DNA of 64,000 bases from an uncultured Gammaproteobacteria bacterium (GTDB lineage: Bacteria; Patescibacteriota; Microgenomatia; JAUYPR01): NCBI GenBank assembly GCA_964372495.1, contig CAYJQU010000002.1:25040-89039 (forward strand). Direction: 5' to 3'. Below the pieces are notes generated by a model. It worked only from the letters and a program-made list of their open reading frames with translations, had not been told where the DNA came from and did not search any database. The translations under genes and the position numbers were made by a program. Shown here in pieces: positions 1 to 7,691 of this stretch (its first letter is position 1; each line of letters starts with the position of its first letter).

Positions 1-93
1 AAGCCCGCAGACAATCTCCCTCTTTAAGTACTCATTAAACTTTATATAACTGACTTGACCACTGAACCGTTCTTATTTGTACAATAGGGGATT

Positions 94-1038
94 ATGAGCT
101 CATTTGAGGTTCTCACTATCGTAGGCACGCTTATTTTTCTCGAGGGGATACTCTCGCTTGATAACGCGGCTATTTTGGGAGCGATTGCGAGTAAACTCCC
201 AGCAGACCAAGCAGTTCCGTGGCCACGAGGATTACGAGCTATCGGGTCAAAACTGAATCGACTCCTTGGAAATCAGCGGCAGGCAGCCCTCAAAGTTGGC
301 CTTTTTGGCGCGTACGCTGGTCGACTGCTTATGCTCTTCCTTGCCAGCTGGATTGTTCATAATCCATGGCTCAAATTAGCAGGAGGAGGATACCTACTGA
401 AGCTGGGACTTGAGGGAATCTCGATTGCTCCAAAGGAGAAACAAAAAGAGCAACAGATCCATGCACCCGAGAGTTTTTGGAGTGCGGTTGCAGTTATTGA
501 ACTGGTGGACCTTGCGTTTTCACTGGACAATGTGCTGGCTGCGGTGGCTATCTCCGAAGCATTTTGGGTTATAGCCCTTGGGGTGGGTTTGGGCATCATC
601 GCGATGCGATTTGCGGCCAGCATCTTTGCCTACCTTATCAAGATTGAGCCCCACTTGGTGCGGGCAGCGTATCTCCTTATCTTTGTCATTGCAATCGAGC
701 TCATCTTAGAACAACTGGCGCAGCTACATGTGGAACACTGGCAGAGGTTAGTTATCTCACTTGCAATCATCGGGTTTACGTTTCTGTATCGCCGTCTGCC
801 TCCGTACTTGCAGTTGCAAAGGACGTTTCGACTCATCGGCACTGCGGGGTATTACCTTGATGAAGGTATTAATTATCTCTTTGTCCCAGTAAAGCTTAGT
901 CTTCGCTTTGCGTTTGTCGAGGTACTCAGACCCACCGGCCTGCGCCTTGCCCATGTCTACAGTCGCATAGAAAAAATCGTAATCGCGTCAGTCGCCTACA
1001 TTGCCATACGGCTCCGGCGCATCCGCGGCTCTGCCTAG
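94..1038 (+). CDS. TerC-family integral membrane protein
   Basis: Hydrophobic throughout, with repeated LSLDN/FSLDN motifs typical of the TerC/Alx family. Confidence 0.55.
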   Translation: MSSFEVLTIVGTLIFLEGILSLDNAAILGAIASKLPADQAVPWPRGLRAIGSKLNRLLGNQRQAALKVGLFGAYAGRLLMLFLASWIVHNPWLKLAGGGYLLKLGLEGISIAPKEKQKEQQIHAPESFWSAVAVIELVDLAFSLDNVLAAVAISEAFWVIALGVGLGIIAMRFAASIFAYLIKIEPHLVRAAYLLIFVIAIELILEQLAQLHVEHWQRLVISLAIIGFTFLYRRLPPYLQLQRTFRLIGTAGYYLDEGINYLFVPVKLSLRFAFVEVLRPTGLRLAHVYSRIEKIVIASVAYIAIRLRRIRGSA

Positions 1039-1087
1039 AGTTTTCGAGCATGGCCTTCAATCTTCCCAAAAGACAGGTGATTCTGGT

Positions 1088-2023
1088 ATGCTGTTTCCTA
1101 CGTTTATGGCGCCAGATTTCACCGGCGGCACCAGCTGGCTCAACTCAGAGCCGCTTACTATTACCCAGCTGCGAGGTAAAGTTGTCGTCGTAGATTTCTG
1201 GACCTACACCTGTATCAACTGCATTCGCACACTCCCCTATCTCACCAAATGGTACGAGAAGTACAAAGACAAGGGGCTAGTCATCATCGGTGTGCATACC
1301 CCTGAGTTTGAGTTTGAAAAAAGCACAAAAAACGTACAGGAAGCCATCAAAGATTTAGGTATTACCTATCCAGTGGTACAAGACAACGAGTATCTGATCT
1401 GGCAAGCGTATGACAATCACTACTGGCCGGCAAAATACTTTATTGACAAGGACGGCGTTATCCGAAACTCCCATTTTGGGGAGGGAGCCCACGAGGAATC
1501 CGAGAAGCTCGTCCAGCAGCTTCTTGTAGAAACAGGAGTAAAGGCACAGATGCCGATTACAAAACTCCAGGAGCCGAAAAACGGTGCACGCACGCCGGAA
1601 ACGTACCTTGGCTATCGGCGCATGGCAAATTTCGCATCTCCGGAAATTCTACGAAGCAACAGGCGCTCCTCCTACACCATACCGACAAATTTACTGGTGA
1701 GAAGCTTTGCACTGGGCGGCAGCTGGACTGTTGGCGAGGAGCGTTCAATTGCCGAAAAAGGTGCATCGTTGGCATTTCACTTTGAAGCAAAAGAGGTGTA
1801 TGTAGTTATGCGACCGCCTGAGGGGAAAGCGACAGTAAACGTGCTGCTGGACGGCAAGCCTGTAGATAAAGAGCATGCTGGTATAGACGTTCAGAACGGA
1901 CAGGTCGGTATTGATGAGGATCGGATGTATCGGTTCATCAAGCTCCCCCGCACCGAAAGCCATATCCTGACGCTCGAGTTTCCTGAAGGCAATGTTGAGG
2001 TCTACGCTTTTACGTTTGGGTAG
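1088..2023 (+). CDS. Thioredoxin-fold thiol-disulfide oxidoreductase (TlpA/ResA/DipZ-C-like redoxin)
   Basis: VVVDFWTYTCINCIRTLPYL carries a CxxC motif in a redoxin-like context. I placed the start at ATG 1088, after the AGGTGA ribosome-binding site at 1074-1079, rather than at the overlapping track start 1001. Confidence 0.7.
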   Translation: MLFPTFMAPDFTGGTSWLNSEPLTITQLRGKVVVVDFWTYTCINCIRTLPYLTKWYEKYKDKGLVIIGVHTPEFEFEKSTKNVQEAIKDLGITYPVVQDNEYLIWQAYDNHYWPAKYFIDKDGVIRNSHFGEGAHEESEKLVQQLLVETGVKAQMPITKLQEPKNGARTPETYLGYRRMANFASPEILRSNRRSSYTIPTNLLVRSFALGGSWTVGEERSIAEKGASLAFHFEAKEVYVVMRPPEGKATVNVLLDGKPVDKEHAGIDVQNGQVGIDEDRMYRFIKLPRTESHILTLEFPEGNVEVYAFTFG

Positions 2024-2904
2024 GTAGATCTGCTATACTGGTTACTGAAACAATCGAAAAGGTTCCTTGGAGGCTTCCCTACTCCAAAGATAGCTCTGTC
2101 GATACGGCCAGAGCGGGGCCACACAAGCCTCTGCCCTGTCCAGTCCAGCGCATACCCTTTTTCTGAACCGGCCAAAATAGCGCCCAAGAGCACATCTCGC
2201 ATTTGGGGTGTGTGTACCACGAAAGCACGGGCCTCTCCTGAAAGAAACTTCAGAATCGCATCCGGCCACGTCACGCAAGTTGCACTATCTGTCTCAAACA
2301 CTTCGTAGCCCTTTTGGGCAATACAATCAACGATCGATTTTGCGACTCGATTATTCTTAAATATACGCTCTCTTACCACCGGAGGAATCTTGATTATCTC
2401 CGACTGCTTCAGCCCATGACGATAGACGTTCTCTGCCTGGCAAGCATGCCCATGCTTGTCTAAAAAGTATGCTCTGTCACGCGCAGGAAAATACACGAGA
2501 GCGGAAACCATCTCCTCCTCCTCGACAAGTCCCACACAAATCGAGTACGAGTCTTTTCCGCTGGCATACTCCAATGTCCCGTCCACGGGATCTATTACCA
2601 GAGAACGGTTAGCTGTTTTATTTGGAAATAGCTTGACGAGGGAAGTGTCCTCTTCTGCATCGAGATAAATTGTTTCTGGATTGAAAAGGTCAAGGGCCGC
2701 AAGTAAAATGATTTCTTGCACCATCTCATCAACTATCGTCTTCGCCTTGCGTCCCAGTACTACATTCTCCGTGTCCCCCTCCATTACCTCTATCTCTTTC
2801 CCAACGTTCTCTACTTTTCCCTGCAGCTCCCGCGCCACCACCCCCGCCTGTCGTACTGCCCGGCTCATGCGCTGCAAAAATAAATGCCGCTGTCTCAATT
2901 CACT
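2002..2904 (-). CDS. Inositol monophosphatase / 3'(2'),5'-bisphosphate nucleotidase family protein
   Basis: DPVDGT metal-binding motif and overall IMPase-like architecture. The start is probably MSELRQ, 22 codons into the track ORF. Confidence 0.6.
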   Translation of the reverse strand, partial: SELRQRHLFLQRMSRAVRQAGVVARELQGKVENVGKEIEVMEGDTENVVLGRKAKTIVDEMVQEIILLAALDLFNPETIYLDAEEDTSLVKLFPNKTANRSLVIDPVDGTLEYASGKDSYSICVGLVEEEEMVSALVYFPARDRAYFLDKHGHACQAENVYRHGLKQSEIIKIPPVVRERIFKNNRVAKSIVDCIAQKGYEVFETDSATCVTWPDAILKFLSGEARAFVVHTPQMRDVLLGAILAGSEKGYALDWTGQRLVWPRSGRIDRAIFGVGKPPRNLFDCFSNQYSRSTYPNVKA

Positions 2905-3025
2905 CATTGTGTTTCTGGCCTGTCTTTTTTCATCGCCCGATTGTACCAAATAGCATAAACTAAACGTCAACTAGTCGACAAAACTCTGCTATAGCACATT
3001 TTCGTCGGTCGTCCACTCCCTTGGG

Positions 3026-3931
3026 TTGATATCGCAATATGGCAACAGGTGCTATGGCAAACAGAAGCATGCTATTATATGTCCTGACCACCTAAGAAAC
3101 ATGCCTATACAGCCAATTATATCCTCAGGCCAGATGAACAAATTTCAGGCTCAAATTTACGCTTTCTATAAAAACTATAAAAGAGATTTTCCGTGGCGAC
3201 ATACAAATGACCCCTATTATATTTTAATTTCTGAGGTAATGCTCCAGCAAACGCAAACCTACCGCGTACTCCCTAAGTATCTTGAGTTCCTGAAGAGATT
3301 TCCAACGGTAGAGGACCTTGCCAGCGCTCCGCTGGCTGATGTTCTCACTGTATGGAGCGGCCTGGGATACAATCGGCGTGCACGGTTCCTTCAGCAAGTA
3401 GCCAAGATCATTGTTGAGGCATACCAGGGAAACGTACCCTCTGATCCTAAGCAGCTTGATGCACTCCCAGGCATTGGACATACTACCGCATCCGCAGTAG
3501 CCGCTTTCTCATATAACCGCCCGGTGGTTTTTATTGAGACGAACATCAGACGAGTTTTTATTCATTTTTTCTTTCCAGAGGACAAGTTTGTCTCCGATAA
3601 AACGCTTCTGCCTCTTGTTGCCCAAACACTGGATAAGGACAACTCCAGGGAATGGTACTGGGCACTTATGGACTATGGAGCTCACCTGGCTTCGAAGGTC
3701 GGTAACCCAAATCGGCGAAGTGCGCATTACACGAAACAATCAGCATTTGAAGGCTCAGTACGAAAGGTACGAGGAGAGATACTAAGGCTATTACTTTACC
3801 ATCGTGAGATTAATCGCCGGGAGTTATTTTCGAATTTCTCCAATAACTCTCCGAAGGCAGAGCGCGCCCTGGATGGACTTGTACGCGACGGTCTTCTCAA
3901 AGTGGTCGACCAGACCATTCAGCTAGCCTAA
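3026..3931 (+). CDS. HhH-GPD DNA glycosylase, MutY-like N-terminal domain
   Basis: ISEVMLQQTQ and WSGLGYNRRARFL match the MutY helix-hairpin-helix/GPD signature. The Cys-x6-Cys-x2-Cys-x5-Cys iron-sulfur loop and the C-terminal MutT-like domain are not present. Confidence 0.7.
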   Translation: MISQYGNRCYGKQKHAIICPDHLRNMPIQPIISSGQMNKFQAQIYAFYKNYKRDFPWRHTNDPYYILISEVMLQQTQTYRVLPKYLEFLKRFPTVEDLASAPLADVLTVWSGLGYNRRARFLQQVAKIIVEAYQGNVPSDPKQLDALPGIGHTTASAVAAFSYNRPVVFIETNIRRVFIHFFFPEDKFVSDKTLLPLVAQTLDKDNSREWYWALMDYGAHLASKVGNPNRRSAHYTKQSAFEGSVRKVRGEILRLLLYHREINRRELFSNFSNNSPKAERALDGLVRDGLLKVVDQTIQLA

Positions 3932-4068
3932 AACACTTCCAGTCCACAAACGGCGCATTACAACCAGCACAATTTTCTTAAACACCTGATAACGGAAGCT
4001 TTCAACAATCAGACTTCCTGAAAATGAACCTGCGATAGCAATGAAAAATAATGATGTAAAATACAGTT

Positions 4069-4404
4069 ATGGGCGTTGTGATTGTTGATGAAAAAGTTGC
4101 CCCAGAAGATCTTGTTATAGCACAAGAAGAATACGGGGAATATGTCAAGATTGTCATTGACATCGAAACAGAAGCAATGGCTATTGGGGGAGAGTGGCAT
4201 GCTGACGCCGAGAAAGAATTGCTTGAAGCAGGAAGTAAACAAAGTAACATGTGGGGAGGCGGAATCGATCTTACCTCCAAACGCATTGAGACTATTGCCC
4301 TCATTAACATACGACCTCGGCTCGGCAATGATAGCCAAGAAATTATTGATCCTAAAATCCGCCAGCGTTTCGTTACAATTGCCCGGAAAAAGTTTTGCTT
4401 ATGA
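4069..4404 (+). CDS. Hypothetical small acidic protein (111 aa)
   Basis: Long ORF in AT-rich DNA (about 42 percent GC by eye) with many D/E residues. Its TGA stop overlaps the ATG of the next ORF (ATGA). Confidence 0.45.
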   Translation: MGVVIVDEKVAPEDLVIAQEEYGEYVKIVIDIETEAMAIGGEWHADAEKELLEAGSKQSNMWGGGIDLTSKRIETIALINIRPRLGNDSQEIIDPKIRQRFVTIARKKFCL

Positions 4405-4667
4405 ATGTCGACATAGCCAATCTATCTGTCGACTTACGGAGAATCTCTTATTGGATCTATCGAGGTCGAACCGAGCTTGCTGACAAATTTCTAAATCAAT
4501 GTAAAGTAAAATATCGCACTATTCCTACACATATCGGTAATTATACGAACGTCTGGGATGAAGTAGAACGGATCCAGAATGCACAAAAAAAACAGATTGA
4601 GGGTGCAGAGCGTGCACTCACCCTTAGTCGGGTTCTGGAAATCTATTCACGCAATCATGCATCTTAA
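4401..4667 (+). CDS. Hypothetical small basic protein (88 aa)
   Basis: ATG at 4401 overlaps the upstream stop (ATGA coupling). K/R-rich and AT-rich. No motif recognised. Confidence 0.45.
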   Translation: MNVDIANLSVDLRRISYWIYRGRTELADKFLNQCKVKYRTIPTHIGNYTNVWDEVERIQNAQKKQIEGAERALTLSRVLEIYSRNHAS

Positions 4668-4718
4668 ATCAGAACGCTCGCTGCTATAGCTGTGAGCGAG
4701 CGCAGCGAGTCGAATCAG

Positions 4719-4789
4719 CTGCCGGGCTAGGATTCGAACCTAAATTACCAGGTCCAGAGCCTGGTTGCCTACCATTAGCAGACCCGGCA
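4719..4789 (-). tRNA. tRNA-Gln (anticodon CUG)
   Basis: Manual cloverleaf fold on the minus strand. The acceptor stem UGCCGGG/CCCGGCA has the U1:A72 pair typical of bacterial tRNA-Gln. D-stem UGCU/GGCA, anticodon stem CCAGG/CCUGG with loop CUCUGGA, T-stem/loop UUAGG-UUCGAAU-CCUAG. CCA is not encoded. Confidence 0.8.
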
Positions 4790-5016
4790 CTATAAGTTTA
4801 GAGATAACACCGAAAACTGATAAGCTTCTGGAAATATTGTACCTCATTTTTCTTCCGCAGTCTAATCGCCGTCTTCCTTACTTCCGAATGTAATCCAAGT
4901 AGCACAAGCGCATCGTTTACATCAGTAAGCAATTTGCGAATCCTATTTATAAATCATCAACAAGTAAAACAACTCCTGCTAAACCCTTTTTTCATAAAAC
5001 TGCCCCATTATGTATA

Positions 5017-6234
5017 ATGAGCGATATGGAAAGAATGCCGGGCCCTAGTGCTGACTGGGTGAGAAAAAGAAAGGGTGATAGAGTAAAAGTAGAAGTTGTT
5101 CAGGTCGACCCAAATACTGGAGTTACTACAATCTGGGCAAAACACTTGAAGTATTTTAGAGAATCAAGAATTGACCAACTTCCTCACAGTGGCTTATATC
5201 GCTGTATCTCCCGTTCTGCAAAGCCAGGAACAATTCCTGAACAACCCAGTTATGCAATCGAGGCGCATCACTCTGGAATCCATAAACATATAGCTTTGGA
5301 AAGAGCAGCTGATGGTTTAGGCTTAGGTTTAAAATTGCATATAATTGATGAATCAGAACCTAACCATTTTTTTGTAAACTATCAAGTCGACCATCTCAGA
5401 AGTATCGGGATACATCACAATTCGATGGATTTGGATGCAATTTACCAATCTTTAAAAGCTCGTCCCCTAGGTGCTAATCTTCTAGAGCTGGGAGAATTTT
5501 ATCGCAATACTGGTGCTGTTGCAACCTTTAACCCTTCTATGGGAGTAGTTGGCCCAGAGCTAGATGGGGACCAAAGGCTATATCTTGATTGGGCTCAATC
5601 TGAAACCAGATGGAAGAGAGACAAAATTATGAAAAATTGGACTGATGAGGAAAGAGCTAGAGTTATAATTGAAGTTGGTACAATCGTAAAAGGCGCTGTG
5701 ACGCAACATTTGGGACAAGATTTTCAACAACCTGATTTGGAGACATTAACTTCTGGTTTGATGGATGCTGTGTTAGTAGATTTACCTTTTGATTTTGATA
5801 CAAAAGAGGGAACTCTAGATAGATTAGCTGTTATTGCTGATTTAGTAGTTAGAAATACCGCCATGCTTGTTACAGCTAACAGACAAAAGTATGCGTATTT
5901 GAGTGATTTTACTGCGAACTTATATTTCTCACCACCAAATCGCGAAGAAATTGGTATAGAGATTGAAGATTTTGAATATGAGCCGATCCACAGAGACAGT
6001 TTAAGATTTGGAGAACGGTATAGGTATGAAGATTATGATTATTTAGTTACCAGAGATAATTCAGGCAGAGTAACTACTAGAATTGTCCGCATATTAGGAA
6101 AAACAACACCGTTACAAGTAACTGTCCGCGAGGAAATTGATTTGGAGGCATTAACCAAACTCTTAACGACTCCTGAAAGTATTGGGTGGGAGAAAGCATT
6201 AAGGGTTGCTGATATAGAACTTCAAAAAGGTTAA
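5017..6234 (+). CDS. Hypothetical protein (405 aa), AT-rich orphan gene
   Basis: 1.2-kb uninterrupted ORF in roughly 38-42 percent GC DNA, flanked by roughly 58 percent GC DNA. A TATAAT box at 5002-5007 precedes it. The start could be ATG 5017 or ATG 5035, the latter after GGAAAG. It has a His-rich segment HHSGIHKH and no recognisable domain. Confidence 0.6.
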   Translation: MSDMERMPGPSADWVRKRKGDRVKVEVVQVDPNTGVTTIWAKHLKYFRESRIDQLPHSGLYRCISRSAKPGTIPEQPSYAIEAHHSGIHKHIALERAADGLGLGLKLHIIDESEPNHFFVNYQVDHLRSIGIHHNSMDLDAIYQSLKARPLGANLLELGEFYRNTGAVATFNPSMGVVGPELDGDQRLYLDWAQSETRWKRDKIMKNWTDEERARVIIEVGTIVKGAVTQHLGQDFQQPDLETLTSGLMDAVLVDLPFDFDTKEGTLDRLAVIADLVVRNTAMLVTANRQKYAYLSDFTANLYFSPPNREEIGIEIEDFEYEPIHRDSLRFGERYRYEDYDYLVTRDNSGRVTTRIVRILGKTTPLQVTVREEIDLEALTKLLTTPESIGWEKALRVADIELQKG

Positions 6235-6269
6235 TCTAACAACACTATTCATTTAAGTCGGCTTCGTAG

Positions 6270-7691
6270 CTACCGATCGCCAACAGTATCAATAGCAGAC
6301 TGTAGGTGAGAAAGAACAGTATCTCTCCCCAACACGAGCATCGTGTCAAAAAGCGGAGGAGTTGCCGTTCTACCAGTAACTGCCACCCGTAGAAGCATAA
6401 ACAGCTCCCCATGCTTGAGGTGGTATCGGTCTGCTAGTGCCCGCATAGCCTGCTCAAGCGCATCATGCTCCCATTGGCACTCCTTTAACGTAGAAACTGC
6501 ATCCTGAAGTACTTGCTTAACATCAGCCACACCTTCTAACTTGAGTAGCCTCCGCTCCACCACAACATCCTCAAAGAAAAAGTCTGCAAGGATCTTGAAG
6601 TCAGCAAGCGTAATCATCCTATCGCGCACGAGCGGCAGCACGTTCTCCACCAGTCCTGCTTCCCATTCTGGGGGTACAAACGGTTTGAGTGCTTCTAGCA
6701 CCCGTGATGCGGGGAGTGTACGAATGTAGTGTCCATTAAACCAATCCAGCTTGTTGCGATCGAAAAATGCCGGACTCTTCTGCACACGCTCCAGGCTGAA
6801 CGACTGTGAAAGCTCGTCCAACGTAAACACTTCCCGGTTATCCGCCGGGGCCGAGTCAGATTCGGCTGGGGCCCACCCCAAAAGTGCCAGAAAATTAACC
6901 AAGGCTTCCGGCAAATACCCCTGCTCTCGATACGTAAGTACCGACTCCGCGCCGTGGCGTTTTGAAAGCTTTGACCGATCGGCTCCAACAATAATCGGCA
7001 GGTGGGCAAACTGCGGCGGGCTCCATCCAAGGAACTGATATACCAAAAGATGTTTTGGGGTCGATGAGAGCCATTCCTCTGCACGAATCACGTGGGTTAC
7101 CCCCATGTCATGATCGTCTACCACCACCGCCAGATGGTACGTTGGGAAGCCATCAGATTTTATAAGCACTTGGTCATCAAGTAACGCGTTTTGAAACGTT
7201 ACTTTCCCCCGAACGATATCCTCAAGCACCGTAACCCCTTGCTGTGGCACCTTCATGCGAACCACGTACGGTCTAGATGCCTGCAGGGCCTTGGCTACCT
7301 CGTCCTTACTGAGGGCCAAACACGTCTGATCATAGCGCGGCGGTTCCCTCCGCTCTTCTTGCTCCTTTCGCATCTGCGCCAGCCGCTCAGGAGTGCAGAA
7401 GCAATGATATGCATTGCCGCTCTCCAGAAGGATCTCTGCCGCTTTCTTATACACATCCAGGCGCTGCGACTGATACACCGGCCCCTCGTCCCACGAAAGC
7501 CCCAACCACTGCATGCTTTCCATAATCCTGTCAACCGACCCTTCTATATATCGCTTTCGGTCTGTATCTTCTATGCGTAGGATAAATATACCTCTCTGTT
7601 TCTTTGCAAAGAGGTAATTGAACAAGGCGGTTCGAATATTGCCAACATGCGGATCTCCGGTTGGCGATGGAGGATAGCGAACGCGCACCAT
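6270..7691 (-). CDS. gltX: Glutamyl-tRNA synthetase
   Basis: Class I HIGH motif (PHVGN) and KMSKS-type KLSKRHG, with GluRS-like length and sequence. Confidence 0.9.
   Translation of the reverse strand: MVRVRYPPSPTGDPHVGNIRTALFNYLFAKKQRGIFILRIEDTDRKRYIEGSVDRIMESMQWLGLSWDEGPVYQSQRLDVYKKAAEILLESGNAYHCFCTPERLAQMRKEQEERREPPRYDQTCLALSKDEVAKALQASRPYVVRMKVPQQGVTVLEDIVRGKVTFQNALLDDQVLIKSDGFPTYHLAVVVDDHDMGVTHVIRAEEWLSSTPKHLLVYQFLGWSPPQFAHLPIIVGADRSKLSKRHGAESVLTYREQGYLPEALVNFLALLGWAPAESDSAPADNREVFTLDELSQSFSLERVQKSPAFFDRNKLDWFNGHYIRTLPASRVLEALKPFVPPEWEAGLVENVLPLVRDRMITLADFKILADFFFEDVVVERRLLKLEGVADVKQVLQDAVSTLKECQWEHDALEQAMRALADRYHLKHGELFMLLRVAVTGRTATPPLFDTMLVLGRDTVLSHLQSAIDTVGDR

Follow-up and report, generated by a model that had tools for sequence, protein, structure and literature searches.

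The subject of this report is a pair of small overlapping open reading frames (ORFs), here called ORF1 and ORF2, in a 64,000-nucleotide (nt) stretch of DNA (contig CAYJQU010000002.1 of assembly GCA_964372495.1, positions 25,040 to 89,039), the whole of which we refer to as the window. The two ORFs are followed by a tRNA-Gln gene on the other strand (Table 1). In an original prediction, made from the sequence, they were taken for a classical type II toxin-antitoxin (TA) system in which ORF1 encodes an acidic antitoxin and ORF2 a basic toxin. The coordinates and lengths of the two ORFs (111 and 88 amino acids (aa)), their ATGA overlap and the adjoining tRNA-Gln gene were all correctly described. 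Judged by their homologues both ORFs are real genes, because ORF1 has 27 close relatives and, in an exhaustive profile search, 1135 representatives of clusters formed at 50% identity, while the relatives of ORF2 number 7 by direct search and at least 183 by profile. The ATGA overlap suggests that the translation of the two is coupled. The difference in charge is also present in the window, where ORF1 has an isoelectric point (pI) of 4.8, with 20 Asp and Glu residues and 14 Lys and Arg residues, and ORF2 has 10 and 14 of these, respectively. As a family trait, however, this difference does not hold, since the homologues of ORF1 range in pI from 4.8 to 9.4. The GC-rich inverted repeat that follows ORF2 has a folding energy no better than that of shuffled controls (z = -0.66), and no T-run was found there.

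Table 1. Features at the ORF1/ORF2 locus, and a fusion gene from a related contig. Positions are those of the window, except in the last row, where they are those of contig L077.
Feature	Position	Strand	Description
ORF1	4069..4404	+	111 aa, DUF5674; compact alpha/beta; proposed catalytic component
ORF2	4401..4667	+	88 aa, basic (pI 9.5); predicted up-down four-helix bundle; no Pfam family
ATGA stop/start overlap	4401..4404	+	TGA of ORF1 with ATG of ORF2; evident from the sequence itself
GC-rich inverted repeat GCTCGCTGC...GCAGCGAG	4674-4712		after the stop codon of ORF2, before the 3' end of tRNA-Gln
tRNA-Gln(CTG)	4718-4789	minus	sole Rfam match, a tRNA
HhH-GPD DNA glycosylase gene	3026-3931	+	directly upstream of the ORF1/ORF2 pair
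405-aa ORF	5017-6234	+	beyond tRNA-Gln; 39% GC, 28% GC at third codon positions (GC3)
CBM_20-DUF5674 fusion	L077 63-623		overlapping 90-aa partner-like ORF at 616-888

ORF1 is a member of the DUF5674 family and resembles an enzyme

ORF1 is a full-length match to the Pfam family DUF5674 (PF18924), with E 1.8e-23 and a score of 83 bits against a gathering cut-off of 27. Its residues 5-106 align to positions 2-107 of the 109 in the model, and all 26 aligned homologues match the same family. The view that neither protein belongs to a recognisable family was therefore wrong for ORF1. DUF5674 has no assigned function in Pfam, and we found no literature on DUF5674 or PF18924. Searches of PADLOC, PHROGs and NCBIfam with ORF1 gave nothing meaningful, and searches of PDB sequences with ORF1 and ORF2, both as single sequences and as profiles, gave nothing real. 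Weak NCBIfam matches that arose in the search with ORF1 and ORF2 (E 0.002-0.005) were present in only 2-3 of the 26 family members and were held to be spurious; the models concerned, which the library names "hypothetical protein", are presumably those of UPF0102.

Among the 26 closest homologues of ORF1, which are 53-69% identical, 21 alignment columns are invariant, and these are mostly polar or glycine. They include K27, D31, G40-G41-E42-W43-H44, D46, E48, W62-G63-G64, N80, R82, S89 and Q90, and give rise to the motifs GGEWHAD.E, WGG, IN.R and SQ. The structure model of ORF1 has a predicted local distance difference test score (pLDDT) of 94.5, with no segment below pLDDT 50, and is a compact alpha/beta fold in the order beta-alpha-beta-beta-alpha-beta-beta...alpha. 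A pattern of invariant residues of this kind is typical of an active site, and because it is found together with a confident, compact model, ORF1 looks like an enzyme. A Foldseek comparison of the model with the PDB gave no match at E <= 0.001.

ORF2 is a helical protein

No match to ORF2 was found in Pfam, NCBIfam, PADLOC or PHROGs. Its relatives, which come, where a source is named, from Woesebacteria, Collierbacteria and 'Patescibacteria group', are all about 80-90 aa long, and none of them has a Pfam domain. Across the Patescibacteria subfamily they are all basic (pI 9.3-10). The predicted bundle is of a generic type, with a conserved N-terminal helix, N-L-S-x-D-L-R-R-I-S-x-W, and a conserved C-terminal A-E-R-A-L-T-L-S; D11, R14, W18 and T74 are invariant, and no His is conserved. 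We read the face formed by D11, R14 and W18 and the small residues A72, T74 and S76 as typical of helix packing, so that ORF2 looks non-enzymatic in the alignment and in the model.

Neither the family searches nor the structure model revealed a toxin family, a toxin fold or a HEPN motif in ORF2. Several more specific identities were considered and set aside. A HEPN reading is not compatible with the absence of an Rx4-6H motif and of a conserved His, and a histidine phosphotransfer (HPt) reading would call for a phospho-accepting His that is conserved on one of the bundle's helices, which was not found. Matches of the ORF2 profile to metallo-beta-lactamases in the PDB (E ~0.01) proved to be alignments of low-complexity helix.

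The two genes form a conserved pair

In every context that we retrieved, the DUF5674 gene is followed immediately by an ORF of 84-90 aa. With hidden Markov models (HMMs) made from the two alignments, ORF2 was located immediately behind ORF1 in 32 of the 34 loci; in the other two, from Doudnabacteria and Fimbriimonadales, a diverged helical ORF overlaps the stop codon of ORF1. Of 42 distinct homologous pairs, 32 have the 4-nt ATGA overlap, which is therefore not a chance feature, and in 38 the genes overlap or abut. Across these 42 pairs the pairwise identities of ORF1 and of ORF2 are correlated (r = 0.78). ORF1 is the better conserved of the two in 94% of the 861 comparisons, with a mean identity of 53% vs 41%.

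A scan of representative genomes found the pair in Amesbacteria, Microgenomatus, Collierbacteria, Daviesbacteria, Doudnabacteria and one Fimbriimonadales genome, and most of the pair loci belong to Patescibacteria. In the latter group only one copy of the pair was seen per fetched locus, and also one in the 64-kb window. The pair is present as well in metagenome-assembled genomes (MAGs) titled Gammaproteobacteria, Pseudomonadales, Nevskiaceae and Hyphomicrobiales (L016, L017, L019, L022, L024, L028-L030). These proteobacterial labels look unreliable, to judge by the grouping of the ORF1 and ORF2 proteins in question with those of Patescibacteria. The neighbours of the pair vary with the lineage and are mostly housekeeping genes, among them genes for tRNA synthetases, CTP synthase, a release factor of the RF-1/RF-2 family and radical SAM proteins. 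Clustering of the neighbouring ORFs did not reveal a recurrent third gene, only synteny that is local to a lineage, and viral contigs and phage genomes contained no relatives of the pair. The possibility that the pair moves as a cassette was also considered and found no support, as the differences among L012-L015 and between L001 and L002 come down to an indel of a neighbouring gene and the insertion of an insertion sequence. As a whole, these comparisons support the conclusion that ORF1 and ORF2 constitute a self-contained, translationally coupled and co-inherited two-gene module.

Sequences in which the two proteins appear to be joined were encountered as well. The C-terminal part of fusion P0215 matches the Fimbriimonadales partner (BLASTP, E 1e-5), and that of P0281 weakly matches the HMM of ORF2 (E 0.013). 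In a fusion of another kind, DUF5674 is preceded by a CBM_20 (starch-binding) domain and a partner-like ORF again overlaps its end (Table 1); this gene lies on a single 890-bp contig with 1.55x coverage. Its domain order is reminiscent of glucan phosphatases such as laforin, with their CBM20-phosphatase architecture.

Copies of the pair on Nostocales megaplasmids

A second setting for these genes is provided by cyanobacteria. DUF5674 was detected by tblastn in 38-43 places on 30-34 Nostocales plasmids, and a partner of 115-124 aa in 55 places on 42 plasmids, with up to three per record. Most of these plasmids are conjugative megaplasmids, and the host genera (L068-L075, L078) are Nostoc, Anabaena, Calothrix and Tolypothrix. 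ORF1 is often a pseudogene on these plasmids. Four intact copies were examined, and in each the partner overlaps the stop codon of ORF1, the overlap being 4 nt in three of them and 20 nt in the other. Just upstream there is often a small, variable ORF of 55-125 aa. In the records viewed the partner is always annotated as 'hypothetical protein', and an obligate downstream partner is not mentioned. The cyanobacterial partner is acidic (pI 4.4-4.7). It has in common with ORF2 its genomic position and the pattern of the N-terminal helix (RLGHIASNLARL vs IANLSVDLRRI; hhalign P = 0.03), and the two are probably homologous. Intact copies of the pair are held by Nostoc punctiforme, which is genetically tractable. 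This distribution, multi-copy, borne on megaplasmids and decaying, resembles that of TA or conflict modules.

ORF2 persists without ORF1

The two genes are not lost with equal ease. At L052-54 and L061 an intact ORF2 is present without ORF1; the gene that ends 130 nt upstream there lies on the other strand and, by our reading, encodes a ComM-type Mg-chelatase. On plasmid alpha of PCC 7120 ORF1 is frameshifted and the partner intact, and in Calothrix 6303 ORF1 is split and the partner is present in two copies that arose by tandem duplication. Anabaena sp. 90 has another intact partner without an intact ORF1, and in Nostoc ATCC 53789 a TnpB element lies between a clipped ORF1 and its partner. 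About 10 of the 42 plasmids carry the partner only. When the best places on the plasmids are compared, ORF1 is degraded in 8 of 34 and the partner in 2 of 40 (p = 0.037). An intact ORF1 without its partner was not seen among the loci and plasmids examined.

At one locus, L066, a frameshifted ORF2 without ORF1 (3980-4239, plus strand) is located beside a pair of genes of 141 and 88 aa (3221-3913, minus strand). From their translations these are presumably a VapBC system, comprising a PIN-domain VapC and a VapB of the AbrB/SpoVT type, and they provide a contrast case to the ORF1/ORF2 pair.

Base composition and the tRNA-Gln gene

The pair had been described as a region of about 42% GC within DNA of about 58%. 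The first value is right (42.6%), but the contrast was overstated, because the mean of the window is 51.8% and the flanks lie at 49-52% (48.7% for positions 1-3900 and 52.5% for positions 6270-64000), with none at 58%. The low-GC tract, which begins near position 3800 and ends near 6300, is not specific to the pair: it continues past it and reaches its lowest GC content over the 405-aa ORF. The GC content of the pair was 2-8 points under that of its own locus in 10 of 11 related loci measured and level with it in the eleventh (L007), and it tracked the GC content of the host. Because the offset recurs in this way and follows the host, it appears to be intrinsic to these genes and does not point to recent transfer. 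Similarly, when tRNA genes were scanned at 40 related loci, most of the fetched stretches had none and the others had a different tRNA, so that, on this comparison, the tRNA neighbour is incidental.

These data bear on the idea that the pair came in recently as foreign DNA, in a genomic island that was inserted at tRNA-Gln, as might be supposed from its GC content relative to that of the window and from its location at the 3' end of the tRNA gene. At the locus we found no att-like or direct repeats of the tRNA-Gln end, and no integrase or other mobility gene was identified among the ORFs around the pair. The recurrent dip in GC content, which tracks that of the host, also argues against this idea, and the strongest compositional deviation lies across the tRNA, in the 405-aa ORF. 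This ORF, the only large one in the neighbourhood, had no match in Pfam, NCBIfam, PADLOC or PHROGs, and no identical sequence is present in the protein collection. The species is represented by two further assemblies (99.9% identical), which end at 4777 and 4984 of the window, before the 405-aa ORF; this suggests that the segment that is strain-variable or hard to assemble lies beyond tRNA-Gln, over this ORF and the stretch at 4790-6270 around it, and not at the pair. Recent acquisition at the tRNA thus appears quite improbable, and we rejected a genomic island at tRNA-Gln in view of the missing att-like repeats, the tRNA as the only Rfam match and the lack of a consistent tRNA neighbour elsewhere.

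A possible likeness of ORF1 to PHPT1

Although no structural match was obtained, comparison of the ORF1 profile with human PHPT1, the 14-kDa phosphohistidine phosphatase of the Janus/Ocnus family (PDB entries 2nmm and 2ai6; the reference sequence used is identical to 2ai6_A), provides some indication of the chemistry that might be expected. In an hhalign alignment (P = 0.07), GEWHAD of ORF1 falls on AEYHAD of PHPT1, which holds the catalytic His53, and WGGG falls on LGGG. In PHPT1, His53 acts as the general base (PMC11277029). By sequence the two proteins are not significantly related: the alignment was not improved when the DUF5674 profile was deepened to 130 sequences (P = 0.074), the Pfam Ocnus family (PF05005) did not match any of the 26 DUF5674 members at E up to 10, and PHPT1 was not recovered by Foldseek with the ORF1 model. 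In the cyanobacterial members of DUF5674 the His and Glu are kept but the HAD and GGG motifs are not, the corresponding residues reading HAF/HFY and WAAS/WGAD. To our knowledge, PHPT1 acts as a single protein that needs no helical partner, and its Janus family has been described only in eukaryotes; literature searches for bacterial PHPT1/Ocnus homologues gave nothing relevant. We regard the likeness as a lead, with a real but minority chance of proving correct.

What kind of module is it?

We propose, tentatively and with slightly less than even confidence, that the pair consists of an enzyme-like DUF5674 protein and a helical partner, and that it is a conserved two-protein module and not a classical type II TA system. 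ORF1 would be a small soluble alpha/beta enzyme in which K27, D31, E42, H44, E48, N80, R82, S89 and Q90 form a His-centred active site, and, if its weak resemblance to PHPT1 is a guide, it might hydrolyse a labile phospho group (of the N-P type) or a similar modification. ORF2 would be a non-catalytic four-helix bundle, made in step with ORF1 by virtue of the ATGA coupling, and would bind ORF1. Because an intact ORF1 was never found without ORF2, while ORF2 persists alone, ORF1 may work on or through ORF2, which would then be its target, adaptor or regulator.

The classical alternative, with ORF1 as antitoxin and ORF2 as toxin, draws on a real similarity. Like type II TA systems (relBE, mazEF and vapBC, or higBA and hicAB in the reversed order), the pair is an autonomous module of two small coupled genes, adjacent and on the same strand, and in the Nostocales it is accessory, plasmid-borne, multi-copy and often decayed. 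In the window an acidic protein is followed by a basic one, and ORF2 remains basic across the Patescibacteria subfamily. Thus the prediction of a small, coupled, same-strand module stands, but the roles assigned within it are contradicted by the conservation, the orphans and the folds. The profile and structure comparisons revealed in ORF1 only the compact DUF5674 domain, and neither a DNA-binding antitoxin domain (ribbon-helix-helix (RHH), helix-turn-helix (HTH), AbrB or Phd/YefM) nor a disordered tail. ORF2, a generic bundle, does not correspond to any recognised toxin family or fold (RelE/ParE, MazF/CcdB, VapC-PIN, HicA, Doc/Fic, HEPN, GNAT or Zeta). An operator-like palindrome was not found upstream of ORF1. 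Of the two proteins of a type II pair it is usually the toxin that is better conserved, and the greater conservation of ORF1, together with the failure of the charges to be conserved (the acidity of ORF1 varies among homologues, and the cyanobacterial partners are acidic), contradicts the assignment of ORF1 as antitoxin and ORF2 as toxin. The orphans argue strongly in the same direction, since a toxin should not outlive its antitoxin and ORF2 is intact where ORF1 is missing or a pseudogene, although an antitoxin might be supplied from elsewhere in the genome. We therefore consider the classical assignment very improbable. A comparison with the HEPN/MNT (HepT/MntA) type VII TA systems is also instructive. 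In these, too, an enzyme gene comes first and a basic protein of about four helices second, with a 4-nt overlap; however, ORF2 lacks the Rx4-6H motif and ORF1 has no nucleotidyltransferase match.

The asymmetry that speaks against ORF2 as a toxin would be expected if the roles were reversed, that is, if ORF1 were an enzymatic toxin and the downstream gene, ORF2, coded for a protein antidote to it, as in higBA, hicAB and darTG, with the module persisting by addiction or acting in defence. Orphan copies of ORF2 are common and those of an intact ORF1 were not seen, ORF1 decays more often than its partner on the plasmids, and an enzyme that is better conserved than its binder is in keeping with this arrangement. 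The tight coupling and the multi-copy, decaying state of the pair on conjugative Nostocales megaplasmids, with varying neighbours, favour it as well. On the other hand, ORF2 has no DNA-binding domain, there were no matches in phage or viral collections, and in Patescibacteria the pair occurs as a single copy per fetched locus, as in the 64-kb window, among housekeeping genes. We judge this reversed arrangement to be rather unlikely. The enzyme-plus-partner interpretation is favoured by the same Patescibacteria setting and by the ORF1-ORF2 fusions and the CBM20-DUF5674 fusion, which would be unusual for toxins; the latter, with its downstream partner, fits an enzyme better than a toxin. Several considerations weigh against our preference. 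The decay of multiple plasmid copies in the Nostocales and the asymmetry fit a toxin and its antidote equally well; the fusions are each known from one metagenomic sequence, on a short contig, and an indel at the overlap could give the false appearance of a fusion; the homology of ORF2 with the cyanobacterial partner rests on position and one helix; and only the Patescibacteria subfamily retains the HAD and GGG motifs that line up with PHPT1. Such probability as these three models leave we assign to other or unknown explanations.

A more specific and speculative version may be offered, which we think unlikely to be correct. DUF5674 would be the prokaryotic counterpart of PHPT1/Janus and would hydrolyse N-phospho groups, with the four-helix partner gating, targeting or receiving this activity. 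The module would then spread on plasmids and might act as enzyme and antidote in a system that interferes with His~P signalling.

The pair defines a widespread and unstudied module, comprising the 1135 DUF5674 clusters and a partner family without a Pfam entry, that ranges over many Patescibacteria lineages, at least one Armatimonadota genome and the Nostocales megaplasmids. If ORF1 were a PHPT1-like hydrolase it would represent a new type of bacterial phosphohistidine-directed enzyme, and if the module were a reversed toxin-antidote system it would contain a new toxin fold. In either case, annotation of ORF1 as antitoxin and ORF2 as toxin would be misleading.

Neighbouring genes

Two kinds of neighbouring gene recurred near the pair. 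A Fic-domain gene is present immediately upstream of the pair in L008 (2997-3971), and another is about 4.4 kb upstream of it in the species of the window (L034, 4221-5297), to the left of the window start; this proximity is probably incidental. A 200-aa HhH-GPD gene, unlike that of the window, lies directly downstream of the pair in L009, L010 and L011 (~4627-5229) and recurs in Amesbacteria (L018). The adjacency of HhH-GPD genes, upstream in the window and downstream in L009-L011, could be a coincidence; by a rough estimate, about 0.2 cases would be expected among some 35 lineages.
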